Below the pieces are notes generated by a model that saw nothing but the letters and a program-made list of their open reading frames with translations, was not told where the DNA came from and searched no databases. A stretch of DNA of 64,000 nt, taken from positions 20,488 to 84,487 of the forward strand of contig CAKTZI010000011.1 of the NCBI GenBank assembly GCA_934635385.1, in the 5' to 3' direction. Positions 12,157 to 64,000 of the stretch are shown piece by piece (the first letter of the stretch is position 1; each line of letters starts with the position of its first letter). Position numbers and translations under genes: made by a program. Origin of the DNA: an uncultured Kiritimatiellota bacterium (GTDB lineage: Bacteria > Verrucomicrobiota > Kiritimatiellia > RFP12 > UBA1067).

Positions 12157-15100
12157 AGTTTCACCCCATCAAGATAAACAGATCCCAGCACCTCGCGGAC
12201 GGCCTCATGCCGCAGCTTGCGCACGCCCGCCGTGCCGAATTCGTCAATTGTGAACGTCTGCGTCTCGTCCGCCGCAAAGCACTTCCAAGGTTCCGCGCCG
12301 TCAGTCGTTTGGGGGACATTCCAGCCCAAGGGAATGCACCAGACGTTCTCCCCTGCAATCCATCCCACGGACAGGGATTCGGAGAGCTGTCCGCCCGGCG
12401 TCATGCGCGGATACGGTTGCGTACACGCCGCCGTGTCACGCGCATCAATGATGTTCTCGTCCAGGACGCGAAACCAGACTCCAGCACCATTCTCACGTGA
12501 GTGGCAGCGGTCTCCGTCAAAGTAGGAATGCGTGAAATAGCCGGTCTGAACGCCCATCGTCGATGGCACTTCCTCGACCCAGATCTCCTGGAACGAGACG
12601 TCCAGAGGAAGAACCTGTATGTCCAGCTGAAGTCCGATTCCGCCCGCGCTAAGCGACGAAAGCCCGTATGTGACTACGCCGGGATTGAGCGCGCGGACGC
12701 CTGACGGCTCCACGACCAGGATCGAGGGCGTATAGGAGACTCCGCCGCAAACGACTTCCAGCGGATTCGACTCGGCGTCAAGCGGGCATCGGTATGTTTT
12801 GTCCTTCTGCATCCTGCCACCGCCTTTCACATTCCACGAAACGTTCGCGACTTCTGGTTCAAAACCGCAGTCGATCAATTCATAAACGCCAAACTTATGT
12901 CGTCCTTCGCTTCCGTTTCCGCCTTCAATCTGAATCGGTCTAATTGTGACCTTGACCGCCGTCAGCGTCGCCTCGGACGTGATCTTCTCCCCGCTCTCCT
13001 CCTCGGTGAAGGTCGCGACGGCCTTGACGTCGCCCGCGCCGCCGCTCGCCGACTGCGCCCGGTACCTCACCTTGATCTTGAACGACTCGCCCGCCTCGAC
13101 CGTCCCCTCGCGCGGCAGGAACGAGCCGCCCACACGTTCGAGCCGTCCGCCGTCGCGCAGCTCGAAGGAATACGAGCCGCCCTTCGTCCCGCCGTAGACG
13201 CTGAACTCGGCTTCGGTCTCCGTCGAGCGCCGCGCGACCGTCTCGCCCGGCGCGTTCTCGTACTCGTCCTCGAAGATGATCGCGGACTCGGAGAACGTCG
13301 CCGAGACGGACAGCCCCTGCGGCTCGTGGTCAGGCTCGTCCTCATCGGGATACGTCGGCCTGTCGGGCGGCGACTCGTGCGAGCAGCCGCAGGGCCAGTC
13401 CGCGAACGACAGCTCGAAGCCCTCGAAGCGGCACGTGTACGTCCCGACCGCGCAGCCTCCGCAGCCGCAGTTCCCGTCGCAGCTGAACAGGGGCACGGTG
13501 AACGGCGGTGGCGGCGGCTCAAGGCAGCAGTAGTTGCCGTTCCACGACACGTCGGCGCCGTCGGGCGCGGGCGTGAAGCGCACGCGCCGTCCGCCTGACG
13601 CGGCGCGGGGCGCGACGGCGGACGCACGGAACGCGGCGACGGGCGAACCGTCCACGATCTCGCACCGGACAGGGCGGCAGACCGTCAGGTGTCCGTCCGC
13701 GTCTACGCCAATTTCGATGTCGGGATGGGATGCGCCGACGCAGACGAGCGTCAGCCGGCAATCGGCGGTGTAGGACTTGCCGAGCAGAAGGACGACGCGG
13801 TTCGTCTCGCCGGCCTTCGCGACGAACGATGGATCGGGCAGGTTCGACGCGCCGCTGCCCGTGAACGTCACGAGGGCGTTCGCGGCAGGGGCGACGAGAT
13901 CGACCCAGTAGTAGTTGTTGGAATGCGCGATGGAGGACAGGTCTTGGCGCGGGCCGAACTGCGGCTCGTCCGCCGCGACAAGCGGCGCGCCGTCCACGTC
14001 ATTCGGGATGCCGTCGTCGTCCCAGTCGTCAGGGTTGACGCGGCGATAGACGCGCTCGATGTCATTGGAGCGCGCGATGAAGTCGCCGTTCGGGAAGAGC
14101 TCGAGCTGCGCGTTGACGGCTGGATGGTCAACAACCTGTCTCTTGACCACGGAAGACACGGAAGCCACATTCGTGGACACAGAAAGGATTAGCGAAGAAT
14201 GCCCTTCGGGGTTCTCCAATCCGTTTTCTCCCAACATGTTCCCAGAAGTTGGGAGAACAGGGGTTGAGGAATCCCGAAGGGCTCCTTTCTCTAACCCATT
14301 CCGTGTCACCGGAGGCGTTTCATCTCTTTCCGTGGTTTGAGAAGAAGAAACGGACACTTCCGCTCTCTCATACGGGTTGCCGAGGAAGAAGTTCTCCCAC
14401 GTCAGCACGACCGAGCCGTTCGTGGTCGCCGCCGTCCAAAGATAGGACTGTCCGTGTCGCGCGAACATCGGCGCGCCGATGACGGCGATCTCGTTCGAGG
14501 CGTTCCGCAGCTGCGGGCGCACCTTGCCCCACGTGTGCGCCCAGAGCGACGTCACGACGTGGCGACCCAAAGGGAAAAGGAAGATGGAAGAAGGAAGAAG
14601 TGCGGAACGGTCCGCTTTCCTGTGCTGTCCGACGGCCTCGGATTCCGCAACAGAGGAGTTGTCCTCCGCACTTCTTCCTTTTCCCTTCTTCCCTTTTCCT
14701 TCCTCCCCCAACATCACCCATACACGCCCCCTGTAGGCGTCGGTGAGATGCCACGTGCTGACGAGCCGTGCGTTCGTCGGTCGCGTGTAGGAAACGGCCT
14801 TGTTCGTCCGCACCGCTTCGAGGCGGTAGCCCCGCACGACGTCGTTGGATGAGAGAGTGGGGTTGCTGTCGCCTAACGCGGAGTTGTAGGAGGAGGGGAG
14901 GCACGGAGTTTCTTTACTGTCTGTCGAAGTTTTGTCCACGGATTGACACGGATTATCACGGATTTGGATTTGTGTCGCTTCGTGTTGATTCGTGGATGAT
15001 CCTTCTCCCGATCCGTGTGAATCCGTGAAATCCGTGGATGCCTCTCCGTGCCTCCGCATCTCCTCATCCTCCGCATTAAGCGTCGCAGACCCCTCTGCGG

Positions 15101-15524: not shown

Positions 15525-18458
15525 CTACTTGCTGACGCGGATCAAATAGAAGCCGCTCGCGCCGCCCTTCACCGTCACCTTCGGCATCCACGGCGCGCCG
15601 TCGCCGACGGTCGAGGCCCCGGCCTTGAGCTCGCCCAGAGACGCTCCCTCGTAAAGCCGGTAGACGAGGCCGGGCCTCGTCTTGACGGTCTTCAGCACCG
15701 GGTCTTCCGCCGTCAGCCTGACTTCCGCGCCATTCGCCGTGTCGAGCGCTTCGTTCGCGTACTTCGCCTTCACCGTCGCCGCGCCGAGATCGATGACGCC
15801 ATTGACCGCCGCCGGGATGTCGAGATAGTCCGTGATGTCCGCCGCGTCGCGCACGATCCGCACCTTCGCGCCGTTCGGCGCGACCGACTTCACGTCGGGC
15901 GAAACTCTCACCGTCGCCACGTCCACACCGTCCGGAATCGTCACCTCCGCGACGGCTGCGGAGAACGAGAAGTCCGTCAAGGCGACGCATCCCCCGAAGA
16001 ACCCGTCGGGAATCTCCGTCACGTCCTCGCCCAACGCGACATGGGTCAGTTGTGCGTATGCCGACGGGAACAGGTCCTTCAGCGTGGTCGACTTTACGAC
16101 CGCCCCCGAATTCAACGCAACGCGAGCGAGGCTGCTGCAACCGTCGAACGCCTCGTCGCCGATGTTCGTCACGCCAGCGGGCAACGTCAACGACGTGAGA
16201 CTGCTGCATCCGTAGAATGCATAACTACCGATGCTCGCCACGCCATCGGGTATCGTCATCGACGTGAGGCCACTGCAGCCGCAGAACGCAAAGTTGCCGA
16301 TGCTCGTCACACTGTCGGGCATCGTCACCGACGTAAGGCCGCTGCATTCGAAGAACACGCTGCCGCTGATGTTCGTCACGCCGGCGGGTATCGTCGCCGA
16401 GGTATCGTCTCCAACATAGTCGTACAGAACTCCCCGTATGACAACAAACCCTTCGAGATCCGCAAGCCCGTCACAACACTTGAACGCGCTGTCGCCGATG
16501 CTCGTCACGCTATTGGGTAACCTTATCGACCTTAGGCCGCTGCAACCTCTAAACGCATCGTCGCCGATGCTCGTCACGCCGTCGGGTATCATCACCGAGG
16601 TGAGGCCTTTTCGATAGAAGAACACGCCGCCGCCGATGCTCGCCACGCCGGCGGGTATCGTCACCGAGGTATTGTCTCCGACATAGTCGCATAGAACCCC
16701 CTTTATGATAACAAAACCTTCGGAGTCCGCAAGCCCGTCACAGCCGGAGAACGCATAATCACCAATATTCGTCACGCTATCGGGTATCGTCACCGACGTG
16801 AGGCCGCTGCAGCCGGAGAACGCCCAGTCGCCGATCTCGAGCTTCGCTTCCGTCACGCCGTCGGTCTCGTAGACCTTGACGAACGCCACGCGCTGAAGCG
16901 TCTTGACGCCATGAAACGCGCTCTCGCCGATCATCTTGCAGTATTTCGCGAGTTTCAGCGTCGTCATGCCGCACGTCGAGTTCCCGAACGCGTCCTCCTT
17001 GATCTCCGTCACCGGGATGCCGTCGATCGTCTCCGGGATCACGAGTTCGGTCGATCCGAGCGCCTCGCCGCCGAGTCCGTCGATTCGCATCGTGCCGTCG
17101 GCCTTGACGGTCGCCCGGTAGTTGTGGACGAGCAGCGTGCCGTAGACCTGCGTGACGGCGTAGTTCGACGCGACCGTGCCCGCCGTGAACGCATAGGCGA
17201 AGGTGTTCTCGTAGGATCCGGGGGCGGTCACGGACGCGAAGTCCGAGAACGTCACGCCGTCCGCGCCGACGAACCCGTTGCCCGAAATGACAGGCGCCGT
17301 CTCGCGGGAATGCGCCGCGCCGTCCCACGCCCATTCGGCGTCCGCGCTCGTGAAGGTCAGTTCGCGCGGCGCGATCGCGAAGGTCGCCTCGACCGTGCCC
17401 CCGTAGTTGCCGACGCCCGTGACGGTGACCTTCGCCGTGCCCGCGTTCACGTTGGCGGCGTAGGCGATGGTGTAGTCGGACGACGAGAAGCTCGCGAGCG
17501 TGTCCGTGACGGAAACCGTCGGCGTCTTTGCCGTGCCGTCGTACTTGTAGCCCGCTTCGGGGATTCCGAGAAGCGTGAGCGTCGCGTTCGAGATTTGGCG
17601 CGGATTCACCGTGACGGTCGCCGCGTTCGTCACGCCCGCATAGCCGTCCGCGAGCGCACGATACCAGACTTTCGTTGCCGTGCAGACGTTCGTGAAGAGA
17701 ATCGCGTCCGCCTGCCAGGGGCCGTCCTTGGCGCGTGCGTATTCGACCGTCGCGCCGCTCGCCGGCGTCGTGACGGAAACGGAGATGCCGTGCCCCTCGC
17801 CGTCATAGCCGACATTCACGACCGCTGCCGTCGCACGGACGGTCGGATTCTCCGGGTCGGTTACGTCAACTTTCGTCAATGTTCCCTCCACGGTGTCGTC
17901 GCCATCTCTCAATTGCATCCTGAATGAGGACTTTCCGTCGTTGCAAGTGCATATAGTGTCTCGGAAGACGTAGGTCGCGTCAAACTCGTCGTCCTCCTCG
18001 TCATTCCAGCACCAGCACGTTGCGATGACGTGGCAGTCGCGACTCTCGATGATCTTCCATCCCTTGTTGTCGCTGTCGCTTTCGTCGGTCTCCCCGTCGT
18101 CGAAGATGTATTTCTCGTGTGACCCGATGGAGGTCAGCGTCAACTCATAGTTCCCCTTGTAGACTTCGGATGAGCCATCGTGCTCATATACGACATTCAC
18201 GACCGCTCCCGTCCACGTCCCCAAGACCCAACTCGGCCAGCCCTCGGTTGGAACCAAGTTGTCCGCATCAATCGTCGCCTGAAGCGTCTTCTTGGCGGAA
18301 GATGCCTCAAGGCCGGAATTCCCATTCCCTCCAGATGTTCCATTCTCGTACCATGTCGCCGTCCAGGCGTTGGCGGCGACGAGCAACGTGCCCACGAACA
18401 CGTAGGATCGTTTTACCACATGTCTAATCTTCAGTTGTTTCATGACTTTCCGATTCAT
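15525..18458 (-). CDS. BspA-type leucine-rich-repeat (LRR_5) cell-surface protein with Ig-like/MBG-type domains.
   Basis: Repeated IPDSVTNIGDYAFSGCDGL, IPDGVTSIGDDAFRGCSGL and LPNSVTSIGDSAFKCCDGL units. YDGTAKTPTVSVTD-type Ig modules. Signal peptide present. The track start at 18491 is a GTG; the first ATG (MNRKVMKQL) is at 18458. Confidence 0.85.
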   Translation of the reverse strand: MNRKVMKQLKIRHVVKRSYVFVGTLLVAANAWTATWYENGTSGGNGNSGLEASSAKKTLQATIDADNLVPTEGWPSWVLGTWTGAVVNVVYEHDGSSEVYKGNYELTLTSIGSHEKYIFDDGETDESDSDNKGWKIIESRDCHVIATCWCWNDEEDDEFDATYVFRDTICTCNDGKSSFRMQLRDGDDTVEGTLTKVDVTDPENPTVRATAAVVNVGYDGEGHGISVSVTTPASGATVEYARAKDGPWQADAILFTNVCTATKVWYRALADGYAGVTNAATVTVNPRQISNATLTLLGIPEAGYKYDGTAKTPTVSVTDTLASFSSSDYTIAYAANVNAGTAKVTVTGVGNYGGTVEATFAIAPRELTFTSADAEWAWDGAAHSRETAPVISGNGFVGADGVTFSDFASVTAPGSYENTFAYAFTAGTVASNYAVTQVYGTLLVHNYRATVKADGTMRIDGLGGEALGSTELVIPETIDGIPVTEIKEDAFGNSTCGMTTLKLAKYCKMIGESAFHGVKTLQRVAFVKVYETDGVTEAKLEIGDWAFSGCSGLTSVTIPDSVTNIGDYAFSGCDGLADSEGFVIIKGVLCDYVGDNTSVTIPAGVASIGGGVFFYRKGLTSVMIPDGVTSIGDDAFRGCSGLRSIRLPNSVTSIGDSAFKCCDGLADLEGFVVIRGVLYDYVGDDTSATIPAGVTNISGSVFFECSGLTSVTMPDSVTSIGNFAFCGCSGLTSMTIPDGVASIGSYAFYGCSSLTSLTLPAGVTNIGDEAFDGCSSLARVALNSGAVVKSTTLKDLFPSAYAQLTHVALGEDVTEIPDGFFGGCVALTDFSFSAAVAEVTIPDGVDVATVRVSPDVKSVAPNGAKVRIVRDAADITDYLDIPAAVNGVIDLGAATVKAKYANEALDTANGAEVRLTAEDPVLKTVKTRPGLVYRLYEGASLGELKAGASTVGDGAPWMPKVTVKGGASGFYLIRVSK

Positions 18459-20870: not shown

Positions 20871-21812
20871 ATGACGAGATCTGACAAGACACAGGGGCAG
20901 GGCCGAAAGAACAGGACGCACAAGACGCAGAGGACGCACAAGACAGGCTTGGCGAACCCTGCGGCCTGTTCGCCTTGCGGGTCTTCTGCTTCAGCGTCCC
21001 CTGCGTCCTGTTCGTCCCGTGCGTCCTGTTTGCCCCCAGCCGGCACCACCGCCCTGACCGACCCGGAGAAGGAGGCTCTGCGCGCGGCATTCTTCGCCGC
21101 GCTCGGGCCGAACGCCGCCGTCTTCAAGGAACTGCTGGAGCGCGCCCCCGAGCTGTGCTTCTACATGAAGGACCGCGAGGGCCGCATCATGGCCCTGAAC
21201 CGCCGCAACTGCGAAGTCTGCAACATCCGCAGCGAATGGGACGCGATCGGCCGCACGTCACGCGACCTCTTTCCGCCGACGCTCGCCGACGACTACATGG
21301 AGCTGGATCACGAGGTCCTGAAGACGGGGCGCCCCGTCCTCCAGCGCGTCACCGCCCACCCCGCCGACTACTCCAACCGCCTGATGATCTCCGACGTCTA
21401 TCCGCTGCGCGACCGGCGCGGACGCCTCATCGGCACGGCCCGCGCCTACCGGCTCACGAGCCGCGACTCGTCCGAGGCGCGCAACTACAACGCCCTGCGC
21501 GCCGTCGCGACCGAGATCGACCGGCGCTATGCCGAACCCCTTTCGCTCGACGCCCTGGCCCAGCGGGCGGGCATGTCGAAGAGCACGTTCAAGCGCACGT
21601 TCACCCGGCTTTTCGAGGTCTCGCCCGGCCAGTACCTGCTGCGCGTGCGGCTCAACGCCGCGCGGCGGCTGCTGGAGACGACGGACAAGCTCATCTCCGA
21701 CGTCGCGCTCGACTGCGGCTTCTACGACCAAAGCCACTTCAGCCGCCTCTTCCGCCGCGCGCGCGGCCTCACGCCCGGCGCCTATCGCCGCGCCCACGCG
21801 CAGACGGGATAG
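20871..21812 (+). CDS. PAS-domain AraC/XylS-family transcriptional regulator.
   Basis: The C-terminus LSLDALAQRAGMSKSTFKRTFTRLFEVSPGQYLLRVRLNAARRLLETTDKLISDVALDCGFYDQSHFSRLFRRARGLTPGAYRR is the AraC HTH. A PAS-like block (FYMKDREGRIMALNRRNCEV) precedes it. The first ~55 codons are encoded by a palindromic repeat element. Confidence 0.8.
   Translation: MTRSDKTQGQGRKNRTHKTQRTHKTGLANPAACSPCGSSASASPASCSSRASCLPPAGTTALTDPEKEALRAAFFAALGPNAAVFKELLERAPELCFYMKDREGRIMALNRRNCEVCNIRSEWDAIGRTSRDLFPPTLADDYMELDHEVLKTGRPVLQRVTAHPADYSNRLMISDVYPLRDRRGRLIGTARAYRLTSRDSSEARNYNALRAVATEIDRRYAEPLSLDALAQRAGMSKSTFKRTFTRLFEVSPGQYLLRVRLNAARRLLETTDKLISDVALDCGFYDQSHFSRLFRRARGLTPGAYRRAHAQTG
20909..21031. repeat. 123-bp inverted-repeat element (GGACGCA-type) within the 5' end of the AraC ORF.
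   Basis: Arms are gaacaggacgcacaagacgcagaggacgcacaagacagg and cctgcgtcctgttcgtcccgtgcgtcctgttt. The centre contains a small hairpin, ggcgaac...gttcgcc. Confidence 0.75.
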
Positions 21813-36087: not shown

Positions 36088-37506
36088 TCACTTGCCGACG
36101 CAGAAGCGCGAAAAGAGGCTGTCGAGCAGGTCGGACGAGTAGGTCGCGCCGACGAGCGCGCCAAGCGATTCGGCGGCCGCACGCACCGCGTTCCCCGCCA
36201 AAACAAGGTCAAGCGGCACATTTTGCAGGAGGGGCGTGAGGTGCGCGCGCGCCGCACACAGGGCCGACAACGCCCGGTCGTCAGGGGCGTCGGACGCCCC
36301 CTCCGACGCGGCGGACGCCGCCCGCCGTTCGAGCGCGGCCACAATCGCCCGCCTGAGTTCGCCCAGCCCCTCGCCCGTCTTCGCCGAGACGTTCAGCCCT
36401 TCGCCGCGCCCCAAATCGCACTTGGGATGGATGGGGAGGAGAGTGGGAGAAGCAGTCTCGGACGTGAGTGATGTGAGGGACGCGGGGGACGTGAGAGCCG
36501 AAAGAGACGCGAGGGACGCAGTGGAGCGAACGCTCGGTTCGCCTGACAAGTCAATCACAATGTCGGCTTCGGCGATCAACTTTTCGGCACGCTTCACGCC
36601 GGCGGCTTCGAGCGCGTCCTCCGTCTCGCGCAGCCCCGCCGTGTCAACGAGCCGAATCGGCCAGCCGTCCAAGTCCAGCCACGCCTCGACCGAGTCGCGC
36701 GTCGTGCCCGGCACATCGCTCACGAGCGCGCGGTTCTCCTCCAAGAGCGCATTCAGGAGCGAACTCTTGCCGGCGTTCGGCGGCCCCGCGAGAACGACCC
36801 GCGCGCCGTCGCGCAGGATGCGTCCCGCACGGACGCGCGTCGCCGCCGTGCCGAGCGCCGCGTCGAGCGCGGCGAGCGACGTGCGTAGCGACGCGAAGAA
36901 GCTGTCGGGCAGTTCGCCCTCGTCGATGTCGAGCGCGTGCTCCAGTTCGGACGACAGGTCGAGCGCGCGGTCATAGAGCGCGCGGTGCGCACGCGCGCGG
37001 CGTCCGGCCAGGCCGTCCAGCGCGGCGTCCGCCGCGCGCGCGGTCTTCGCCTGAATGAGGTCAAGAACGCTTTCCGCCTGGTCATAGTCGAGCTTGCCGT
37101 TCAGAAACGCGCGCTCGGTGAACTCGCCGCGCCGCGCGAGCCGCGCCCCGGCGGCGAAGCAGGCCTCCAGCACACGGCGCGGCGTGACCGCCCCGCCGTG
37201 GCACTGGAACTCGACGACGTCTTCGCCCGTGTAGGAATGGGGCGCGCGAAAGGCGAGAACGACGGCGGTGTCGAGGGGGGGGAGGTTTGGGAGGTTTGGG
37301 GGTTTGGAAAGTTTGGGGGGTTGGGAGGTTGGAAACAGGGCGCAGACGCGCGCGCACGGCAAGCCACCGGACGGAGGCGCGAAGCGGCCGCGCGTCAGGC
37401 GCGTGGCGACGGCGAACGCCTCAGGCCCCGAAACGCGCACGACCGCGACCCCGGCAGGGCCGGGCGCGGTCGCAATCGCTGCGATGGTCTCATTCTGATT
37501 CAGCAT
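36088..37506 (-). CDS. mnmE: tRNA modification GTPase MnmE (TrmE).
   Basis: TIAAIATAPGPAGVAVVRVSG, YTGEDVVEFQCHGG, GPPNAGKSSLLNAL, and the C-terminal FCVGK. It carries two low-complexity in-frame insertions. Confidence 0.9.
   Translation of the reverse strand: MLNQNETIAAIATAPGPAGVAVVRVSGPEAFAVATRLTRGRFAPPSGGLPCARVCALFPTSQPPKLSKPPNLPNLPPLDTAVVLAFRAPHSYTGEDVVEFQCHGGAVTPRRVLEACFAAGARLARRGEFTERAFLNGKLDYDQAESVLDLIQAKTARAADAALDGLAGRRARAHRALYDRALDLSSELEHALDIDEGELPDSFFASLRTSLAALDAALGTAATRVRAGRILRDGARVVLAGPPNAGKSSLLNALLEENRALVSDVPGTTRDSVEAWLDLDGWPIRLVDTAGLRETEDALEAAGVKRAEKLIAEADIVIDLSGEPSVRSTASLASLSALTSPASLTSLTSETASPTLLPIHPKCDLGRGEGLNVSAKTGEGLGELRRAIVAALERRAASAASEGASDAPDDRALSALCAARAHLTPLLQNVPLDLVLAGNAVRAAAESLGALVGATYSSDLLDSLFSRFCVGK
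36459..36525. repeat. GGGACGYGAG-type short tandem repeats inside mnmE.
   Basis: gacgtgagtgatgtgagggacgcgggggacgtgagagccgaaagagacgcgagggacgc encodes SLASLSALTSPASLTSLTS. Confidence 0.65.
37281..37336. repeat. GGTTTGG (CCAAACC) ~10-bp tandem units inside mnmE, in the opposite orientation to the murI copy relative to the coding strand.
   Basis: ggaggtttgggaggtttgggggtttggaaagtttggggggttgggaggttggaaac encodes QPPKLSKPPNLPNLPP. Confidence 0.8.
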
Positions 37507-37520
37507 CGCCGCACGTGATT

Positions 37521-37548
37521 TCTCCGTGCCTCCGTGTCTCCGTGTGAG
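37521..37548. repeat. Solo half-arm of the CGGAG-type element in the mnmE/antiporter intergenic spacer.
   Basis: tctccgtgcctccgtgtctccgtgtgag is nearly identical to 52546-52573. Confidence 0.7.
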
Positions 37549-41856: not shown

Positions 41857-41860
41857 GGGA

Positions 41861-41944
41861 AAATAATCGAATAATCGAATTGGAGAATAATCGAATAATC
41901 GAATAATCGAATTGAAGAATTGGAGAATTGGAGAATTGGAGAAT
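41861..41944. repeat. Two adjacent 9-bp tandem arrays: AATAATCGA (about 5 units) and GAATTGGAG (about 4 units).
   Basis: aaataatcgaataatcgaattggagaataatcgaataatcgaataatcgaattgaagaattggagaattggagaattggagaatt fills the ACT-UPF0210 spacer. Confidence 0.85.
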
Positions 41945-42217
41945 TTAGATGCGGTGCATCTTCTCGAAGATCTCGGACTTCTGGCAGCGGATGTGCAGCC
42001 CCAGTTCGAGGCCGAGCTTCGAGAGTTCCGCACCCACCTTGTCGAAGGTCTTCCGGCACTTCGCGCCATCGACGATCATCATCATGTTGAAGTAGCCGCC
42101 CACGACGGTCTGCGAAATGTCGAGAATGTTGATTTCGTTCTTGGCGAGGTAGGCGCTCGTCTTCGCGATGATGCCAACGGTATCCTTGCCGACGACGGTG
42201 ATGATGACTTTTTTCAC
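41945..42217 (-). CDS. ACT-domain protein (UPF0237).
   Basis: [39 protein letters not shown] start with a strong AAGGAG Shine-Dalgarno sequence. Confidence 0.85.
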
Positions 42218-52084: not shown

Positions 52085-54592
52085 TCACTTGTTCAATGTC
52101 GTGTGGCTGCCGCGTTTGATCAAGACGGCGAGGACGGCGATGTCGGCTGGGTTCACGCCGGGTATGCGGCTTGCCTGTGCGAGCGTTTCGGGACGGAATT
52201 TCTTCAGTTTCTCACGGCTCTCATAGCGCACAGCCAAGCACTTGTCATAGTCGAGCCATTTCGGAATGACGAGTGCTTCGTCCTTCTTGGCTCGTTCAGC
52301 CGCTTTCTCCTCCTGCTCAATGTACGGTGCATAATGACGCATAATCATAACTTCTCGGTCAATTCGAGAAAGGCCGTTGAGATTGGTTGGCGTGAAAGGA
52401 GTTGTAATGGGATGGCTCACACGGAGGCACGGAGACACGGAGGTTTTTAACATTGAAGACACGAAAACGTCACTTGCGGGCACGAATTTCGTGTCTGAAT
52501 GTCCGTTTCTTCTATTTTCGTGTTTATCACATTCTCTTACAAAATTCTCCGTGCCTCCGTGCCTCCGTGTGAGGCTTTCATTTTTATTGAGCCTTGTCAA
52601 AATCTCCTGATACTCTTCTTCTATCGCATCAAGCGTTTCCTTCGACAGAATGCCAATGCGCTTGGCCGCAGACAGCAATCGATAGTAGGCATTGTCCTGA
52701 CGCAGGATGAGACGTCGTTCGGCACGGCTCGTGAACATACGGTACGGCTCGTCCGTGCCCTTCGTGACAAGATCGTCAATCATGACGCCAATGTAGGCAT
52801 CCTGTCGGCTGAGAACGAGCGGCTCTTCGCCTTTGACCTTCAATGCGGCATTGATGCCCGCCATGAGGCCCTGCGCGGCCGCTTCTTCGTAGCCCGTCGT
52901 GCCGTTGATCTGTCCGGCGAAGAAAAGACTGGGAATGCGCTTCGATTCGAGCGTGTGTGTCAGCTCGCGTGCATCGATGCTGTCGTATTCGATGGCATAG
53001 GCGTAGGCGAGAAAATCGGCATGTTCAAGTCCGGCAATCGAATGCACCATCTCTTCCTGTACCTTTTCGGGTAGCGAACAGCTCAAGCCGTTCGGATAGA
53101 TGACCGTGCCGTCCTTGTCCTCAGGTTCGAGAATGACGTGGTGCTGATGGGCTTCGGCGAAGCGTACGATCTTGTCCTCAATGCTCGGACAGTACCGAAC
53201 ACCCGTTCCGACGATTTTTCCGCTATAGAGAGCCGAAACCGCGAGGTGGTCACGGATGATTTGGTGTGTCTTGTCGTTTGTATGTGTCATCCAACACGGC
53301 AACTCCGGCAAATTGTTCCACGTGGAACAACTTGGGAATGCCTGCGGCGCTGAACGCGGAGAAGACGGAGAGGCGGAGACGCGGAGTTTCAGTTCAGATA
53401 CACTCTCCAAATCATCTCCGTGTCTCTCATTCTCCATTCCCTCCGCGTTAAGCGACAGCAACCCGGTCGAACAGGGAGAAGCCTGCGGCGCTGAACACGG
53501 AGAAAACGAAGAGGCAGAGGTGCGGAGTCTCGGATCTGGTGCTTCATCCTTTAAAGAAACTTCATCTCTTCCATTCTCCTTTATCTTCGTGTTAAGCGTC
53601 GCAGACCTCTCTCGCTCTCCCTCGCTCCGTGTCAATCCGTGATAATCCGTGGCCAACTCACACGGAGGCACGGAGGCACGGAGGTTTGTCGGGTTGTCTA
53701 CAGTTTCTCCGTGCCTTCCATTCTCCCTCACCTCCGTGTTCAGCGTCGCAGACATCTCTCCCTCGCTCTCAATCCGTGCCAATCCGTGATAATCCGTGGC
53801 TAAAAAAGTGTGTTCCACGTGGAACAATGGGCGAGGGGTGGCGCCATCTTGTCGCTGGCAGACGCTGAAATCACAGCTTGAAGCCTTGAGACGCGGTGGC
53901 GTACCTGTCTTCAGGCGAATCAGCTCGAAACCAAGAGCTGAAAGGCTCTCTGAAAGCTGATTGACGGCGGGGCGTCCGTCGCCGCCGCTTTCGCGGCACT
54001 GGTCGCCGATCCAAACGCGGCCGCGCAGGGCCGTGCCGCTCGTAATGACGACGGTTCGCGCGGTGAGTGTGCCGTGACATTCCGTTTTCACGGAATGCAC
54101 GGGATAGAGAACTGGTGTTAAATCAGCGTTTAGTTTGGCTGACGATTGGCTGGTTTGAAATGAATCAGCGTTTTGTCTAATGAGTTTTGAAGGCTGCCCG
54201 ACTTCAATACCGATCACGGCATCTTCGAGAACGGTCAGGTTGGGTTGCGCGGCGATGACGGCTTGCATACGCGCGGCGTATTCCCTCTTTGCGCATTGGC
54301 AGCGCGTCGCCCAGACGGCGGGGCCTCGGCTCAGGTTGAGAATCTTCGCCTGAAGGGCGGTGGCATCCGCGTTCTTGCCCATTTCGCCGCCCAGCGCGTC
54401 GAGCTCGCAGACGAGGTGGCTCTTGGCCAAGCCGCCGATGGACGGGTTGCAGGGCATGCGCGCAATGGCATCTGCACGGGAGGTGACGAGAAGAGTCGAC
54501 ACGTTCATGCGCGCCGCCGCAAGGGCGGCTTCGGCGCCGGCATGTCCGCCGCCCACGACAATGACGTCAAACTGTGACTGTAAAAAAGACAT
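52085..54592 (-). CDS. mnmG: tRNA uridine-5-carboxymethylaminomethyl modification enzyme MnmG (GidA). At 835 aa it is enlarged by three in-frame insertions.
   Basis: [66 protein letters not shown] and [15 protein letters not shown]. Typical MnmG proteins are about 620-630 aa. The ATG at 54592 lies 6 nt after TGCTATAAT. Confidence 0.9.
52416..52573. repeat. CGGAG-type palindromic element with a nested CACGAA-type core, inside the mnmG 3' region.
   Basis: Arms are ctcacacggaggcacggagacacggagg and tctccgtgcctccgtgcctccgtgtgag. Confidence 0.85.
53313..53827. repeat. Composite of three palindromic repeat units inside mnmG, bracketed by two copies of the palindrome TTGTTCCACGTGGAACAA.
   Basis: Palindromes at 53313-53330 and 53811-53827. 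Units at 53340-53462, 53481-53652 and 53653-53800. The unit ends (gcctgcggcgctgaac... and ...gttaagcgacagcaac) are shared with 60042-60167 and 61047-61316. Confidence 0.85.
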
Positions 54593-54598
54593 GGTGAA

Positions 54599-54607
54599 AT
54601 TATAGCA
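54599..54607 (-). promoter_or_regulatory. Extended -10 TGCTATAAT, 6 nt upstream of the mnmG ATG (leaderless-type).
   Basis: The reverse complement of attatagca is tgctataat. The spacer is ttcacc. Confidence 0.55.
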
Positions 54608-54740
54608 CACTTGACGCTGATTTGTGAACAGAAAATATTTTAATGTTATGAGACGTTGAAAATTCATTTTTACGTGATTTTAGTTAAAAACATCAATTTT
54701 TGAAAGATAACCGTTTTGTCAAGAGGAAAGATGTAAAATC

Positions 54741-57714: not shown

Positions 57715-57733
57715 ATGCAGAATTATCGCGCAA

Positions 57734-57823
57734 GCGGGTCCGGAGAAGCTTCGCAACGGTGCGAAGTGCCGAAGGTGTAACTCCCCGAAAGGGTCGGGGA
57801 CGATCTCTCAGGCAAAAGGACGG
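57734..57823 (+). ncRNA. Glycine riboswitch (single aptamer).
   Basis: cGGAGAAg, P2 hairpin gcttcgca/tgcgaagt, GCCGAAGGTGTAA, P3 hairpin tcccc/gggga, then CTCTCAGGCAAAAGGAC. This matches the conserved glycine-aptamer core. It lies upstream of an AGCS symporter, a known genomic context for this riboswitch. Confidence 0.8.
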
Positions 57824-57840
57824 AAAGGCAAGACAAAACA

Positions 57841-59388: not shown

Positions 59389-59859
59389 ATGACCGTTGCG
59401 GACAGACTGGTCGCGCTCCTGAAGGCGCAGGGACTGACGTGCGCGACGGCCGAAAGCTGCACAGGCGGCGGCGTGGGGGCGGCGATCACCGCCGTCCCCG
59501 GCTCCAGCGCGGTCTTCCTCGGCGGCGTCATCTCCTACGCGAACGCGGTCAAGCGGGACGTCCTCGGCGTGTCGCCGGCGACGCTGGAGACGGTCGGCGC
59601 GGTCTCGCCCGAAACGGCCGCGCAGATGGCGGACGGTGCGCGACGGCTCCTGAAGGCGGATCTCGCCGTTTCCGTGACGGGCATCGCCGGGCCGGACGGC
59701 GGGAGCGCGGCGAAGCCGGTCGGCCTCGTCTGGTTCGGCCTCGCGACGAGGGACGGCGTGCGCACGGAGAAGGCGATCTTCGCGGGCGACCGCGCGGCCG
59801 TGCGCGTTCAGTCCGTCACGCACGCGCTCGGCATGCTGACGGTGGGAGCGTCCGCATGA
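59389..59859 (+). CDS. CinA C-terminal domain / nicotinamide-nucleotide amidohydrolase PncC-like.
   Basis: TCATAESCTGGGVGAAITAVPGSSAVFLGGVISYANAVKRDVLGV...GIAGPDGG. Confidence 0.85.
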   Translation: MTVADRLVALLKAQGLTCATAESCTGGGVGAAITAVPGSSAVFLGGVISYANAVKRDVLGVSPATLETVGAVSPETAAQMADGARRLLKADLAVSVTGIAGPDGGSAAKPVGLVWFGLATRDGVRTEKAIFAGDRAAVRVQSVTHALGMLTVGASA

Positions 59860-61355
59860 TGAGGCGCACCGTCATTCTCGCGGCGGGGGATTTTCCGCCG
59901 CGCGGCTCGGAGCCCGAACGGCTCCTGCTGTCGGCGGCGCGTGTCGTCGCCTGCGATTCGGCGGCAGCGACGTATCGGCAGCGCTTCGGCCGATGGCCGG
60001 ATGTCATCATCGGGGATCTGGACAGTTTCTTGCCAAAAGACGCCTGCGGCGCTGAACACGGAGGAGACGGAGAGGCGGAGACGCGGAGAGTCGAGCCACA
60101 CGCCCTATCCTTCCAAAGAACTCCGTGCCTCCCTTCCTCCATCACCTCCGTGTTAAGCGAAAGCAACAAAGACGCCTGCGGCGCTGAACACGGAGAAACG
60201 GAGGCACGGCGGAGGGTTGTGCGGATTGATGATGATGAGACGAACGACCTGGACAAGGCGATTGCCTATTGCCGGACGCAGGGGTGGGCGGATTTGGTCA
60301 TCGTCGGCGCGACGGGCAGGCGCACGGATCACGCGATCGGCAACGTCTATCGTGCGCTCGCGGCGGAAGTCCCGATCGTCGAGGCCGAGGGCGCTTTCCT
60401 GCCCGTGCGCGGCAAGCTGACGTTTCGGACGTGGAAGGACGCGGGCGTGTCCGTCTTCGCGCCTGATCCGGCGACGCGGATGACGTCGCGTGGCTTGCGC
60501 TGGAAGCTGGACGGCGTGCGGTTCGCGAACCCGTACTGCGCGACGCTGAACCGCGCATCATCCGAAACGGTGACGGTCACGAGTACGCATCCGGCGTTCG
60601 TCTACGCGGCGCGCAATCCCGCCGCCGTGCGGGCGGTTGTCGCGCTCGGCTCGAACGTCGGTGCGCGCGCGACGTATCTGAAGCGGGCGCTCGCGGCGCT
60701 CGCGGCGCTGCCCGAGACGCGGCTGCTGGACGTGAGCGCGGTGCGCGAAACGGAGCCGGTGGACGTCCCGGCGGAATTTGCCGCGCAGAAGTTCCTCAAC
60801 CAGGCGGCGGTCTTCGAGACGACGCTTGCGCCACTTGCCTTCTCGCGCGCGATGCACGCGGTCGAGGATCGGCTGGGGCGTGTCCGCACGGTGCGGAATG
60901 GCCCGCGCACGATTGATCTCGACCTGATTCTCTTCGGCGACGTGCGCCTGGACACGTCGGAACTGACCCTGCCCCATCCGCGTGCGCAGGAACGCGCCTT
61001 TGTCCTCGATCCTCTCAACGAACTCGGCATCAGACTTCCTCTTGTGGCCTGCGGCGCTGAACGCGGAGGTGACGGAGCGTCGGAGACGCGGAGCCCCGTA
61101 CCGAGTGTCCCATCCCCCACAGAACCTCCGTGTCTCCCATCCTCCGCTATCTCCGTGTTAAGCGAAAGCAACTCGGTCGTGCGGGAAGAGGCCTATGGCG
61201 TTCAACGCGGAGGAGGCGGAGAGTCGGAGACGCGGAGTTCCGTGTCGGGCGCCCCATCTCCAAAACAACCTCCGTGTCTCCCCTCCTCCATCACCTCCGT
61301 GTTAAGCGACAGCAACCCGGTCGGACAGGAAGATGCCTACGGCGTTCAACGGTAA
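59856..61355 (+). CDS. Fusion of thiamine pyrophosphokinase (N-terminal) and HPPK/FolK (C-terminal), interrupted and extended by in-frame repeat elements.
   Basis: TPK part: IIGDLDS, DDDETNDLDKAI and GATGRRTDHAIGN. HPPK part: VVALGSNVG, RNGPRTIDLDLILFG and LTLPHPRAQERAFVLDPL. No stop separates the two halves. The ATG overlaps the upstream stop (ATGA). Confidence 0.8.
   Translation: MMRRTVILAAGDFPPRGSEPERLLLSAARVVACDSAAATYRQRFGRWPDVIIGDLDSFLPKDACGAEHGGDGEAETRRVEPHALSFQRTPCLPSSITSVLSESNKDACGAEHGETEARRRVVRIDDDETNDLDKAIAYCRTQGWADLVIVGATGRRTDHAIGNVYRALAAEVPIVEAEGAFLPVRGKLTFRTWKDAGVSVFAPDPATRMTSRGLRWKLDGVRFANPYCATLNRASSETVTVTSTHPAFVYAARNPAAVRAVVALGSNVGARATYLKRALAALAALPETRLLDVSAVRETEPVDVPAEFAAQKFLNQAAVFETTLAPLAFSRAMHAVEDRLGRVRTVRNGPRTIDLDLILFGDVRLDTSELTLPHPRAQERAFVLDPLNELGIRLPLVACGAERGGDGASETRSPVPSVPSPTEPPCLPSSAISVLSESNSVVREEAYGVQRGGGGESETRSSVSGAPSPKQPPCLPSSITSVLSDSNPVGQEDAYGVQR
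60042..60216. repeat. One complete 126-bp CGGAG-type unit plus a truncated second unit inside the TPK domain.
   Basis: gcctgcggcgctgaacacggag...ctccgtgcctcccttcctccatcacctccgtgttaagcgaaagcaac. The direct repeat aaagacgcctgcggcgctgaacacggag occurs at both ends. Confidence 0.85.
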
Positions 61356-61366
61356 GCGAAAGCAAC
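61047..61366. repeat. Two tandem 144-bp units (126-bp palindromic element plus 18-bp linker) and a collapsed unit in which the two termini are joined directly. Together they form the 3' tail of the TPK-HPPK ORF.
   Basis: Units start at 61047, 61191 and 61335. The third is gcctacggcgttcaacgg|taagcgaaagcaac and contains the stop codon. Confidence 0.85.
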
Positions 61367-61395
61367 CTAGAAAACGGCAAATAAGGAACGAAACG

Positions 61396-61965
61396 ATGAA
61401 TGACTATGCGAAGACAATTGCGGCGCTGAAGCGCCGCGGATACGAGGCGACGGCGGTCGCGACCAAGGAGGAGGCCTCCACCCTCATCCTGAAAGAGGCC
61501 GAGGCGGCTCAGTCCGTCGGCTGGGGCGGGTCGGAGAGCGTGAAGGCGCTCGGCGTGCGCGAGGCGCTCGCGGCGGCGGGCAAGGAGATCCGCGACCACC
61601 AGACGCAGATGGATCTCTTTCTCCTCTCGGCGAACGCGCTGACCGAGGACGGCGTGATCGTCAACATCGACGGCACGGGCAACCGCATCGCGGCGTCCAT
61701 CTACGGGCCGAAGCGCGTCGTCTACGTCATCGGGCGAAACAAGCTCGTCGCGGGCGGCGTGCTGGAGGCGATCGCGCGTGCGAAGAAATTCGCCTGCGGG
61801 CCGAACTGCCGCCGGCTCGGCAAGAAGACGCCGTGCGCCGAGAAGAACCTCTGCGCCGACTGCGACTCGCCCGACCGCATCTGCAAGGTGACGGCTGTCT
61901 TCGACCGCTGTCCGTCGCACACCTCGACCCTCGTCATCCTCGTCGACGAGCCCCTCGGCTACTGA
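61396..61965 (+). CDS. LUD-domain (lactate-utilisation YkgG/DUF162-like) protein with a C-terminal Cys cluster.
   Basis: DLFLLSANALTEDGVIVNIDGTGNRIAASIYGPKRVVYVIGRNKL. An AAGGAA Shine-Dalgarno sequence precedes the ATG at 61396. The track ORF starts inside the repeat, at 61333. Confidence 0.7.
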   Translation: MNDYAKTIAALKRRGYEATAVATKEEASTLILKEAEAAQSVGWGGSESVKALGVREALAAAGKEIRDHQTQMDLFLLSANALTEDGVIVNIDGTGNRIAASIYGPKRVVYVIGRNKLVAGGVLEAIARAKKFACGPNCRRLGKKTPCAEKNLCADCDSPDRICKVTAVFDRCPSHTSTLVILVDEPLGY

Positions 61966-61987
61966 GAAAAATTTCTCAATGCCCCCC

Positions 61988-62017
61988 TTGACACCCAAAT
62001 GGGTAATATGGTATAGT
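61988..62017 (+). promoter_or_regulatory. Strong sigma-70 promoter: TTGACA, 18-nt spacer, TGgTATAGT.
   Basis: cTTGACAcccaaatgggtaatatggTATAGT, about 70 nt upstream of the ATG at 62087. Confidence 0.6.
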
Positions 62018-62086
62018 TCGCATCGTGAGGCCGAAAAGACACCCGAACGGGTGACAATTTGCCAACAACCAAAAAGGAAAACACAC

Positions 62087-64000
62087 ATGAAAAAACTACT
62101 GACAATGCTTTCCGCAGCTGCGACGGCCCTTGGCCTTCAGGCGGCGGATCTGTATCCGAGCGGCACGTCGTTCGACGGCGATTATTGGGGTGAATCGGAA
62201 CAGGCGCTGTGGTCTTCGTTGGAAGGTCTCAGCATTTCGGAAACGCCGTTTGACTATTCTGGTGATCTCCCCGTTCAGTTTCAAGACGACGATAACGGCA
62301 ATAACCTTCATATCGAGCGGAAGTTGACGGATGCGACTTTCCGTGCAATCGTGGCGGGAGGGGCCAAGCAGACTATTCCGAGCAACGGTCTTTGCGTCGA
62401 TACGCTGATTAAGTTCACGGCGTTCGACCAGGAGGACGTGGCGAGCATTGATGGCATGGATGCCAAGTTTGCGGTCTGGGTCAAGGAGATTGAGGGTGCT
62501 GAAGGTGAAGCCTCGACTTTTCAGTTGATGGTGACGGCTGGTCAGTGGGACAGCGATCAGGATACGCTTGTTCGTAAAGACTATGCGTGTTCGAGTGTGA
62601 TTACGGACATGGATAAATGGTATCGCTTGACAGTCAAGGTCATCTCGGACATCACGAACGGCAGCAATATTCCGGGCTATGTCGTGTGTGTCAATGGCGA
62701 GGTCGTGACATCGGGTGAGGCGCAGAGGGATGTCGCGAAGCTTTCGCTTTCATCAGAGGGTTCTGGCTGGAACGCGAATGGCGCGGTCTTCCCTGCCCTC
62801 GTCACCGATGACTTGACGATGAGCCATGTTGGCTTTGCGGGTACGGGCTGGATTGACGACCTTTCCATCACAGACAAGATTCCTGATTTTGTTGAGGCAA
62901 AGGAAGTTTTCACGGTTAGAGGAAGCGATTTTGTCAAGAGCTTCAAGTACAATGGCCAAATCTGGAATGCGGGCGATGCGGCGTTGATTGTCGCTTCGTC
63001 GAATGAGGCTGCTGAGTCGGCGACGGACATTGTGTACATTGATGGTTACTTTGGCCCGATGGTGCAGACCGTGAATCGTGAGGCAAATTCCGAGAACATC
63101 ATTGGTGCGGATGCCAAGGTTGAAGTGGCGACTGTCACGATTGACGGCGTGAAGACCTCGTATGCGACAGGCGATGGCGCACTTACCGCTGTCAATGCGG
63201 CGGTGTCTGCTGTGACCCTGAAGCTTGGCGCGGATTGCTCAACCGAACTTCTGTTTGAGAATGCGAATGGTGCAGAAATCACGCTTGATCTCGCGGGCAA
63301 GACCGTGTCGCACAATATTTACGCGGCGACCAAGGTGATCATTATTGACACGGTCGGCAAAGGAAAGGTCGATGGCAAGGTCGAATTTGAGTCCGAATGC
63401 CTTGAAATCAGGGGCGGAAAGTTCCTTGTCTCGAAGAACGCGAATGGCATCGACGCCACTCTGCTGGACGGCATGAAGTGGGGCAAGGATGAAGATGGTG
63501 CGTATTGGATGCTCGTCGAAAAGGGTGAAGGCGTGACCTTCGCGGTGGCGGCTGGTGCACATACAACCGTGACGGTTGAGATTGACGGCGAAGTTTTGGA
63601 GACGATTCCTGAAACGCTGATTGCGGGCCAGACGTACAGGGTGACGTTTACTGCGGCTAATGGCTATGCATTCGCCGAGGATGCCCAGACGGTCTTTGAA
63701 GGCACGGTGGCTGATGCTGACGTGACCATTGAAGGTCCGGCTGTCACGGCGATCGCGTATGCGATTACGTATAAGTGGACGGGCGTGGAAGAGGCGGATC
63801 TTGAAAACATCCAGAACATCAATCCGGAGACTTACACGATTGAGTCCGAGACGATTACGTTTGCCGCTCCGACCTGCGAAGGCTACACTTTCAAGAGCTT
63901 TGACCCGGCGGAGATTGCGATGGGTTCCACGGGTGACGTGACGGTCACGGGCACGTTTGAAAAGAGCGGCTCGACCAAGCCCACGACGTGGGACGAGGTG
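62087..64000 (+). CDS. Large secreted surface protein; only the N-terminal 638 codons are present and the 3' end is outside the window.
   Basis: Absent from the ORF track because there is no stop before the window edge. I translated the frame by hand and found it open from the ATG at 62087 to 64000. Signal peptide MKKLLTMLSAAATALGLQAADL. AAAAGGAAAA Shine-Dalgarno sequence. The C-terminal part, EGYTFKSFDPAEIAMGSTGDVTVTGTFE, resembles Listeria-Bacteroides (Flg_new) repeats. Confidence 0.8.
   Translation, partial: MKKLLTMLSAAATALGLQAADLYPSGTSFDGDYWGESEQALWSSLEGLSISETPFDYSGDLPVQFQDDDNGNNLHIERKLTDATFRAIVAGGAKQTIPSNGLCVDTLIKFTAFDQEDVASIDGMDAKFAVWVKEIEGAEGEASTFQLMVTAGQWDSDQDTLVRKDYACSSVITDMDKWYRLTVKVISDITNGSNIPGYVVCVNGEVVTSGEAQRDVAKLSLSSEGSGWNANGAVFPALVTDDLTMSHVGFAGTGWIDDLSITDKIPDFVEAKEVFTVRGSDFVKSFKYNGQIWNAGDAALIVASSNEAAESATDIVYIDGYFGPMVQTVNREANSENIIGADAKVEVATVTIDGVKTSYATGDGALTAVNAAVSAVTLKLGADCSTELLFENANGAEITLDLAGKTVSHNIYAATKVIIIDTVGKGKVDGKVEFESECLEIRGGKFLVSKNANGIDATLLDGMKWGKDEDGAYWMLVEKGEGVTFAVAAGAHTTVTVEIDGEVLETIPETLIAGQTYRVTFTAANGYAFAEDAQTVFEGTVADADVTIEGPAVTAIAYAITYKWTGVEEADLENIQNINPETYTIESETITFAAPTCEGYTFKSFDPAEIAMGSTGDVTVTGTFEKSGSTKPTTWDEV

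Follow-up and report, generated by a model that had tools for sequence, protein, structure and literature searches.

What makes the open reading frame (ORF) of a bacterial housekeeping gene run on far beyond the last conserved residue of its product? The TPK-HPPK fusion gene of an uncultured Kiritimatiellota bacterium, which lies near one end of the 64,000-nucleotide stretch of contig CAKTZI010000011.1 analysed here (hereafter the window), raises this question, since repeated units enlarge its ORF by 108 aa beginning after the last conserved HPPK residues (...LNELGIRLP). Here we show that this tail consists of copies of a palindromic repeat, non-autonomous in kind, which lengthens ORFs, and we draw a new link between this repeat and a cassette that carries a gene for a GxxExxY protein. 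We put at roughly 65% the probability that the tail represents gene-less miniature copies of a hairpin-armed GxxExxY cassette family, which arrived and were reshaped at the junction between the HPPK and LUD-domain genes. The parts of the locus are as follows.

59856..61355, plus strand: TPK-HPPK fusion ORF, 499 aa, with Pfam matches to TPK_catalytic, Thi_PPkinase_C and HPPK and with two element-derived stretches
61047..61172, plus strand: tail unit 1, a 126-bp palindrome with 47-nt arms and a 32-nt loop (nhmmer E 9e-45; -60 kcal/mol, z -4.8)
61173..61190, plus strand: linker 1, 18 bp, tcggtcgtgcgggaagag, conserved family sequence and not host DNA
61191..61316, plus strand: tail unit 2, a 126-bp palindrome with the left-terminus variant gcctatggcgttcaac (nhmmer E 5e-45)
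61317..61334, plus strand: linker 2, 18 bp, aligned with the linker at 53464-53481
61335..61366, plus strand: collapsed unit, in which a left terminus (18 nt), gcctacggcgttcaacgg, is fused to a right terminus (14 nt), taagcgaaagcaac
61367..61395, plus strand: spacer with an AAGGA motif resembling a ribosome-binding site before the LUD-domain gene, kept in array-bearing relatives and absent where the genes overlap

The HPPK Pfam match stops at residue 390 and the tail occupies residues 398-499. A sequence-only reading of this DNA had described two 144-bp units, each a 126-bp palindrome followed by an 18-bp linker, and then a collapsed copy with the stop codon at its junction; the sequence itself, Tandem Repeats Finder (61046-61351, period 144, 2.1 copies, 81% matches, score 409) and a repeat search all bear this out. 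The cores of both tail units are imperfect palindromes with 39-42-nt arms that are 71-79% complementary around a 32-nt centre, and as single strands the units are predicted to fold into long hairpins (-56 to -60 kcal/mol; compared with dinucleotide shuffles, z is -3.8 to -4.8). The right terminus of the collapsed unit at 61353-61366 is 100% identical to that of the first unit at 61159-61172, and the stop codon TAA (61353-61355) is formed by its first three bases, exactly at the junction. In the full units the TAA of the right terminus is out of frame (offset 1); because the collapsed unit has lost 94 nt (1 mod 3), this TAA comes into frame. The LUD-domain gene, identified by a Pfam LUD_dom match, begins with the ATG at 61396.

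The same units are dispersed through the window, where CGGAGNNNCGGAG occurs 18 times against 0.62 expected, an excess that is not due to chance. A hidden Markov model (HMM) of the unit returns five full copies in the window (61036-61189, 61180-61332, 60029-60173, 53330-53478 and 53472-53607) and fragments at 53662-53754, 14861-15097, 60170-60214 and 52421-52511. Outside the tail, the members of the family and related elements in the window are these.

60042..60167, plus strand: TPK unit, a full unit inserted in frame with the TPK catalytic domain, where it separates the GDLDS and ETNDLDKA motifs (nhmmer E 6e-42)
60168..60215, plus strand: solo left terminus with a partial left arm, directly 3' of the TPK unit (nhmmer E 3e-6)
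53341..53758, plus strand: MnmG array, made up of two units (53341-53463; 53482-53607) and, as its third part, a CACGGAGG-box hairpin (53662-53754)
52416..52573, no strand assigned: related hairpin in the C-terminal part of MnmG, CACGGAGG x3 / CTCCGTGC x3, with 33-nt arms (91% complementary) and a 92-nt loop, in frame
14856..15096, minus strand: long-loop family member, with a 135-nt loop holding a nested CACGGAT-box hairpin, within the open frame 12150-15368 (minus strand)
37521..37545, minus strand: solo box array, CTCCGTG x3, between two minus-strand genes

The TPK unit shares its reading frame with the tail and splits the Pfam TPK_catalytic match into two stretches; the insert in the TPK loop is 44-52 aa long. 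It is bracketed by a perfect 28-bp direct repeat, aaagacgcctgcggcgctgaacacggag, at 60036-60063 and 60168-60195, with a spacing of 132 bp (44 codons), which contains element sequence and is not a target-site duplication, and the HGETEARRR remnant of the solo arm beside it is present in most close relatives. The MnmG array is antisense to, and translated through by, the MnmG/GidA ORF (52085-54667, minus strand, 860 aa), whose Pfam GIDA match is split in two around it; viewed from the plus strand the array looks intergenic. The frame 12150-15368 (1072 aa), which holds the long-loop member, is a putative ORF with no Pfam match.

Alignment of the family shows that the element ends first read from the collapsed copy are family-wide termini, recurring in 21 further copies. 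In these 21 copies a 16-nt terminus and four CGGAG boxes with an 8-nt period make up the 47-nt left arm, which the right arm mirrors with CTCC(G) boxes, ending in ...GTTCAGCGCCGCAGGC or, where diverged, ...GTTAAGCGAAAGCAAC, and the 3-nt spacers between boxes are variable and mostly unpaired. Across the family the loop ranges from 12 to 135 nt and the unit from 92 to 230 bp, and canonical copies such as that at locus L097 (loci in other genomes are cited by our L numbers) carry a perfect 22-bp terminal inverted repeat, GCCTGCGGCGCTGAACACGGAG / CTCCGTGTTCAGCGCCGCAGGC. The motif of the linker stands after units at 61317-61334 and 53464-53481 and before elements in L105, L121 and L126 (ctgcacgggaag); its presence at these other loci marks the linker as family sequence.

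Beyond the window, which itself has at least six, nhmmer detects 58 copies or fragments in 40 loci of approximately nine genomes. A strict full-element pattern gave only two true matches on GTDB genomes, and the exact 22-nt left terminus GCCTGCGGCGCTGAACRCGGAG was used instead; it occurs at 39 loci in approximately nine GTDB species-representative genomes, all of them metagenome-assembled genomes (MAGs) from gut or rumen labelled Kiritimatiellae, Kiritimatiellaeota, Verrucomicrobia or Lentisphaerae. Around the TPK-HPPK genes of 18 more distant Kiritimatiellae, Verrucomicrobia or Lentisphaerae MAGs there are no copies; the family is clade-restricted, being limited to gut and rumen Kiritimatiellae. 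Thus the units, which could have been private to the tail, belong to a dispersed element.

Three further observations concern the family at large. A subtype of about 190 bp, found in rumen MAGs (L096, L107, L111, L120, L122, L124, L130 and L131), has a conserved 95-nt interior, cattttggagttttgcttcgcacaactgaatgac..., with its own nested hairpin, and the copy in L131 sits just upstream of a large ORF. Solo 15-16-nt termini are found at a distance of 24-27 nt from the outer edge of full elements, or enclose such elements in nested palindromes (L116 2588-2800, L114 5426-5465, L118 upstream of 5926), hinting that the terminus may be a preferred insertion target, or that insertion and deletion may have been repeated at one site. 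Finally, a 16-bp sequence, GTTCCACGTGGAACAA, flanks the MnmG array of the window on both sides (53315-53330 and 53812-53827) and is also found beside the array in L112; its first 14 bp form a perfect palindrome around a CACGTG, and of its two copies one is translated as LFHVE, the other as CSTWNN. We rejected it as a simple target-site duplication of an in-frame insertion, the two copies being 497 bp apart (2 mod 3).

How does such an element come to be read as protein? Only one of its three sense frames is open, the others being stopped by a TGA in the left terminus and by the TAA in the right, and it is the open frame (...PCLPSS.SVLSESN) that is used at both TPK-HPPK sites. All tandem periods observed within ORFs are multiples of three (144, 141, 147, 132 and 165). 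Copies inside genes of relatives, which occur in both orientations, are found in MnmG (L112, 775 aa; L099) and in a TSP3-repeat protein (L101), and other genes have had their 3' ends extended in the same way, as the sequence-only reading had proposed to check: in L109 two tandem units make the C-terminal tail of a beta-lactamase-family ORF, and in L127 a copy forms the tail of a GH106 ORF. The conserved domains of TPK-HPPK and MnmG are intact on either side of the inserts. That open frames are kept through the units argues that these are translated and not removed.

Comparison among relatives demonstrates that both TPK-HPPK insertions are facultative. Proteins 74-88% identical to that of the window in the conserved parts are 343-449 aa long against 499 aa here (relatives overall span 338-449 aa, normal ones having about 340 aa), and either insertion, in the TPK loop or as the tail, can be missing from them or present in partial, single or double form; more distant TPK-HPPK homologues have neither. 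At the HPPK/LUD junction itself, L094 is empty, with the stop of HPPK and the start of LUD sharing an ATGA; L090 carries a single full unit and a solo right terminus; in L092 nothing is left of the array but a left and a right terminus fused together; and the window has two full units and one collapsed. The three array-bearing loci (window, L090 and L092) share the short AAGGA-motif spacer before the LUD ATG. The copy number of the MnmG array likewise varies between the window, L112 and L099. Presence and unit number thus differ between strains, and this variability identifies the tail as derived, dispensable and not conserved as protein. Neither outcome that the sequence-only reading had set as its refutation, units absent from the rest of the genome or a tail kept as protein in relatives, was borne out. 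The element occupies the former ATGA junction, the native HPPK stop is gone, the open frame of the element is used and the collapsed unit supplies the new stop.

Structure prediction places the boundaries of these insertions where the DNA does. In an AlphaFold2 model built from an alignment both enzyme domains are confident, whereas residues 61-112 and 398-499 have a predicted local distance difference test (pLDDT) score below 50 and are without secondary structure; these stretches correspond exactly to 60036-60191 and 61047-61352, that is, to element-derived DNA. The tail and the TPK insert are predicted to be disordered, are not conserved and are probably tolerated rather than used, and the tail may be neutral.

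Where might such an element have come from? Between the same pair of arms, L114 has about 500 bp that hold an ORF of 148 aa, with matches to TIGR04256 'GxxExxY protein' (E 2.8e-37) and to PF13366 PDDEXK_3 (E 3.4e-36), and in L108, which is orthologous to the L114 site, a half-deleted remnant of the GxxExxY gene lies between the arms. A search for close relatives of the L114 protein gave 12 loci, of which eight new ones were examined, seven from Kiritimatiellae and one from Gemmatimonadaceae (L145). All eight have inverted arms on either side of the GxxExxY gene, 25-57 nt long, 81-85% complementary and 409-568 nt apart; the CACGGAG-box arms of five Kiritimatiellae loci (L135, L136, L137, L139 and L143) match the HMM of the window units (E 3e-7 to 3e-10), and three of the examined loci have a GGAG(T/G)TT-box variant of the arm. 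The similarity extends beyond the arms. The centre of the window units, of about 30 bp, had been taken as variable, and so it is, yet its 3' half (...cccATCTCCAAAAcaaC|CTCCGTG) aligns with the subterminal sequence of the cassette (...ccaATCTCCAAAAtgaA|CTCCGTG). The called GxxExxY proteins moreover run into the right arm, ending in ...PPCLPSSIPSALGKSN, in the same frame as that of the HPPK tail (...PPCLPSSAISVLSESN), and this use of the frame by the nuclease gene explains why that frame of the element is open. Shared arms, subterminal sequence and frame together make the 126/144-bp units best read as gene-less miniatures of the GxxExxY cassette.

Arms built as box arrays surround GxxExxY genes in at least five phyla. 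They are 30 nt long and 90% complementary, with CACAGAGG boxes, in Bacteroides finegoldii (L146), where the gene lies between radA and a gene for an FAD-dependent protein; 25 nt and 92% complementary on a Sphingomonas parapaucimobilis plasmid (L147, 482294-483835), between fabD and fabG; 16 nt, with CACGGATT boxes, in Treponema; 28 nt and 86% complementary in Bernardetia; and 25 nt and 84% complementary in the Gemmatimonadaceae MAG L145. In Gemmatirosa, which like L145 belongs to the Gemmatimonadota, the arms are accompanied by an adjacent mini-hairpin. We note separately that the genes of L146 and L147 are co-oriented between conserved neighbours, a pattern to be expected of a small selfish insert expressed by read-through. 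The GxxExxY family itself is large, with 3789 matches in one search, many of the relatives lying on contigs of about 1 kb. The model of the protein is confident (pLDDT 85), and the protein has no sequence relative in the PDB and no match in PADLOC or PHROGs. A survey enters the function of PDDEXK_3 (PF13366) as 'Unknown' (PMC3424549), and our literature search returned no paper that describes GxxExxY genes as mobile or hairpin-flanked, and none on their function.

A model for how the tail was assembled can be put together from these comparisons. According to the model, the full-length form would consist of two 47-nt inverted arms enclosing a GxxExxY / PDDEXK_3 nuclease gene of about 125 aa, and the miniatures, which probably arose by internal deletion, would have kept the arms and the subterminal 3' sequence, sometimes with the 18-bp outer extension, and lost the gene. 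An element would have inserted in an ancestor within the Kiritimatiellae at the HPPK/LUD junction, where the two genes then overlapped as ATGA, and the native HPPK stop would have been lost; entry in the sole stop-free sense frame lets translation read through. Recombination or slippage between repeats would then have altered the number of units, leaving two full ones here, and the 144-bp period (48 codons) preserves the frame. Growth and shrinkage of arrays by such events would fit the perfect 28-bp repeat at the TPK unit and the differing deletion products of L090, L092 and the window. Lastly, one unit would have collapsed to its two termini, and the resulting frame shift by one would have exposed the TAA present in every right terminus. 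The collapsed copy had been likened to a deletion or excision footprint: L092 shows a similar collapse of a whole array, a hairpin- or repeat-mediated deletion fits as well as excision does, and no precise microhomology can be read at the junction. We favour a hairpin- or repeat-mediated deletion as the probable origin of the collapsed unit, with the footprint of an enzymatic excision as a possibility. What first dispersed the family may have been the nuclease of the cassette, or else some function of the host that acts on the arrays of boxes.

More tentatively, and with the odds in our judgement somewhat against so broad a claim, GxxExxY genes, which annotations everywhere label 'function unknown', may be the cargo or engine of a widespread and undescribed bacterial selfish cassette. 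Such a cassette would comprise a PD-(D/E)XK nuclease gene of about 125 aa within inverted arrays of 8-nt boxes (consensus approximately AAC-AC-NGAGG), would be found in at least five phyla, placed between host genes or in the same orientation as these, and would spawn hairpin miniatures, which in gut Kiritimatiellae have colonised housekeeping coding sequence in frame. For movement or maintenance, recognition of the boxes by the nuclease would take place on DNA cruciforms or hairpins or on RNA.

Several results weigh against deriving the tail from mobile miniatures of this cassette. No short direct repeats that could be target-site duplications stand beside the canonical copies L097, L129, L105, L121 and L126, no transposition event or excised form was seen among the copies analysed, and tblastn finds no GxxExxY homologue in the 64-kb window. 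Three of eight GxxExxY genes sampled outside the phylum, those of Prevotella, Persicobacter and Fusobacteria, have no flanking arms, and Foldseek relates the protein to generic PD-(D/E)XK structures only (Cas4 SSO0001, lambda-exonuclease-like and splicing endonuclease), at E 4e-3 or weaker. Copies are about 20% diverged and gene-internal insertions are common to orthologues across species, which looks like old vertical inheritance and not recent activity. Between the window and L090 the arms are identical at 86/94 positions, the loop at 15/32 and the third codon positions of the flanking gene at 80%; the arms thus change more slowly than third codon positions and must be constrained or homogenised by concerted evolution, so that a function at the level of host RNA or DNA is possible. 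It should also be noted that translation of the tail is deduced solely from the maintenance of the ORF.

This last comparison of rates leads to the alternative that best survives, namely that the hairpins are RNA or DNA structural elements which serve the host, in the manner of REP/BIME or ERIC sequences, by stabilising, processing or uncoupling operon mRNA at gene junctions, the extension of the ORF being a side effect. Besides the conservation of the arms relative to synonymous sites, the hairpins of the family have similar and high stability on both strands (-50 to -65 kcal/mol, with z of -2.8 to -5.5), many copies lie at gene 3' ends or between co-directional genes, and a new spacer resembling a ribosome-binding site follows the array. 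However, copies also lie deep in essential coding regions and in both orientations, where cleavage of the mRNA or termination would do harm, and their presence is facultative among close relatives. Of the columns in 21 arm pairs aligned without gaps, those that pair are the invariant CGGAG/CTCC boxes, and the variable 3-nt spacers give no compensatory signal, for which reason no covariance model was built; arm mismatches compatible with G:U pairing number 22 on the plus strand against 21 on the minus strand, a lack of bias that gives no sign of a strand-specific RNA. Rfam at gathering thresholds reports nothing in the tail region, its single match in the window being a glycine riboswitch elsewhere. 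An intrinsic terminator is rejected, as there is no terminator-like site, and no T-run terminator, after any unit in 59700-62100. On balance we consider a host-serving role unlikely as the explanation of the tail.

A second alternative gives the tail and the TPK insert a function as protein, for instance as a flexible linker or in interaction or localisation, and holds that the palindrome is incidental. It is true that the ORF is open through each unit, that tandem periods are multiples of three and that the sense reading is always in the same frame, but selection against stop codons alone would give open frames. The many orthologues at 74-88% identity that have neither tail nor insert, the predicted disorder of both segments, the conservation that tracks DNA boxes and not codons, and the antisense use of the same DNA in MnmG, where it encodes an unrelated peptide, make this explanation very improbable.

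We give the same low standing to the idea that the units are sites for a site-specific recombinase, like the attC sites of integrons or dif, with the collapsed copy as the product of site-by-site recombination. The GTTAAGC and GTTCAAC of the termini resemble attC core sites, fitting GTTRRRY and RYYYAAC, and the 126-bp unit with its variable centre falls within the attC size range. The arms, however, bracket a cargo gene in inverted orientation, whereas an integron has one attC site per cassette in direct orientation, with R''/R' core sites and an adjacent intI, the units lie within housekeeping ORFs, and the junction of the collapsed copy is not at the canonical G/TT position; neither integrase nor cassette array stands beside the copies looked at, no systematic recombinase search having been made. 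The likeness to a repeat-spacer organisation that had been remarked on is superficial, as it was said to be, and a CRISPR array is rejected: the arms are the inverted arms of one palindrome and not direct repeats, there are only two units, and no cas genes were noticed in the ORFs inspected. Lastly, although the window comes from a metagenome assembly, in which repeats can be mis-assembled, a purely local duplication or assembly artefact is refuted by the identical 499-aa TPK-HPPK protein encoded on seven independent contigs from different samples and assemblers, and by the homologous units at unrelated loci and in approximately nine other genomes.

The window holds further repeats of related or unrelated construction. 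In the Pfam-confirmed MnmE/TrmE gene (36088-37506, minus strand) there are two short in-frame tandem arrays, GGGAGGTTT x5.9 at 37280-37330 (peptide ...PPKLSKPPNLPNLPP...) and GGACGCGAG x6.7 at 36460-36519 (peptide ...SLASLSALTSPASLTSLTS...), and the GGAGGTT motif found there is similar to the boxes in the arms of L138, L140 and L141, which form the second subtype of the GxxExxY cassette. Three further hairpin or box elements of other types lie close to one another at 14176-14307, 14570-14701 and 14937-15150, all inside the putative ORF 12150-15368, with 60-nt arms around a 12-nt loop, GGAAGA-type arms, and CACGGATT / ATTCGTG 10-mer arrays; with so many nested hairpin repeats, 14176-15150 has the look of a hotspot, close to where a large ORF has its 5' end. 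A hairpin at 20910-21030 has the same construction with another box, its tandem 9-mer arms (ACAAGACGC / GCGTCCTGT) being 29 nt long and 86% complementary around a 63-nt loop. Tandem repeats of 69 bp (23 codons) and 267 bp at 16138-16839, 62-83% identical, probably belong to a repeat-domain protein unrelated to the palindromic family, and an AT-rich 8-mer tandem array (AATAATCG / GAATTGGA, approximately 11 copies) occupies 41858-41945 of the otherwise GC-rich window. Between 27733 and 36034 (minus strand) five ORFs share a near-identical N-terminal segment (complement of ATGA..GAGAAG..), which is typical of the prepilin-type N-terminal cleavage/methylation domains common in bacteria of the PVC (Planctomycetes, Verrucomicrobia and Chlamydiae) group. 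The glycine riboswitch aptamer is at 57730-57833 (plus strand; Rfam RF00504, 47.6 bits, E 1.2e-6), upstream of the Na+/alanine symporter gene seen in L001.

The comparisons of filled and empty sites and of copy number in essential genes such as those for MnmG and TPK-HPPK amount to a natural experiment on how proteins acquire and tolerate disordered segments. The GxxExxY cassette offers a candidate parent element for palindromes of this kind, and with it a testable role for the common GxxExxY / PDDEXK_3 family, whose function is unassigned. There is also a practical side, in that the units make gene calls too long or split them, and interrupt the assembly of metagenomes, and annotators should recognise them.

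Several known systems share some of these features. In the REPIN/RAYT system, doublets of REP (repetitive extragenic palindromic) sequences that form hairpins are reportedly mobilised by a REP-associated tyrosine transposase (RAYT). Common to both are short non-autonomous hairpins whose arms flank a small gene in inverted orientation, together with lineage-specific and apparently vertical persistence. The gene here, however, is of the PD-(D/E)XK type, with matches to TIGR04256 and PF13366 only, and not a Y1 HUH/IS200-like transposase, and REPINs are extragenic whereas the units described here are often inside ORFs. Intervening sequences of 23S rRNA have a long terminal stem whose loop carries a small ORF, and they resemble the cassette in that a small gene lies within long inverted arms able to pair in the transcript, which could allow excision at the RNA level. 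The cassette and its relatives differ from them in being sited in or between protein genes and in their cargo, and ORF maintenance argues for translation of the units and not for their removal.

Bacterial MITEs (miniature transposable elements with inverted repeats), among them Correia/NEMIS, ERIC, RUP and BOX, are small, have terminal inverted repeats and many copies, arise as internal-deletion derivatives and are occasionally fused in frame to ORFs (PMC10969869). The units likewise lie below the size limit of about 500 bp, are without coding capacity of their own, end in terminal inverted repeats and are present in many dispersed copies. The target-site duplication of MITEs is not detectable beside them, and their arms are long internal box arrays rather than simple terminal inverted repeats. 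In place of an autonomous parent that encodes a transposase there is, in part, the longer relative with the same arms, which encodes a GxxExxY PD-(D/E)XK protein and belongs to no recognised insertion sequence or transposase family.

The closest parallel in behaviour is provided by the Rickettsia palindromic elements (RPEs), palindromic repeats that are translated in frame inside housekeeping genes and tolerated as extra segments (PMC10969869, citing Ogata et al. 2000, Science 290:347, and Ogata et al. 2002, Genome Res 12:808). The units share with RPEs the form of palindromes of approximately 100-150 bp, which lie in frame in unrelated housekeeping genes or between genes and have no evident transposase inside. 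We claim a likeness of behaviour only, and not family membership: the host belongs to the free-living or gut Kiritimatiellae and is not an obligate intracellular alphaproteobacterium, and the arms here consist of CGGAG boxes with an 8-nt period and form tandem arrays of varying copy number. We know of no gene-carrying parent form of RPEs, whereas here the GxxExxY cassette is a candidate. 'Protein-coding palindromes', so far described as peculiar to Rickettsia, are thus extended to an unrelated and non-reduced lineage of the gut.

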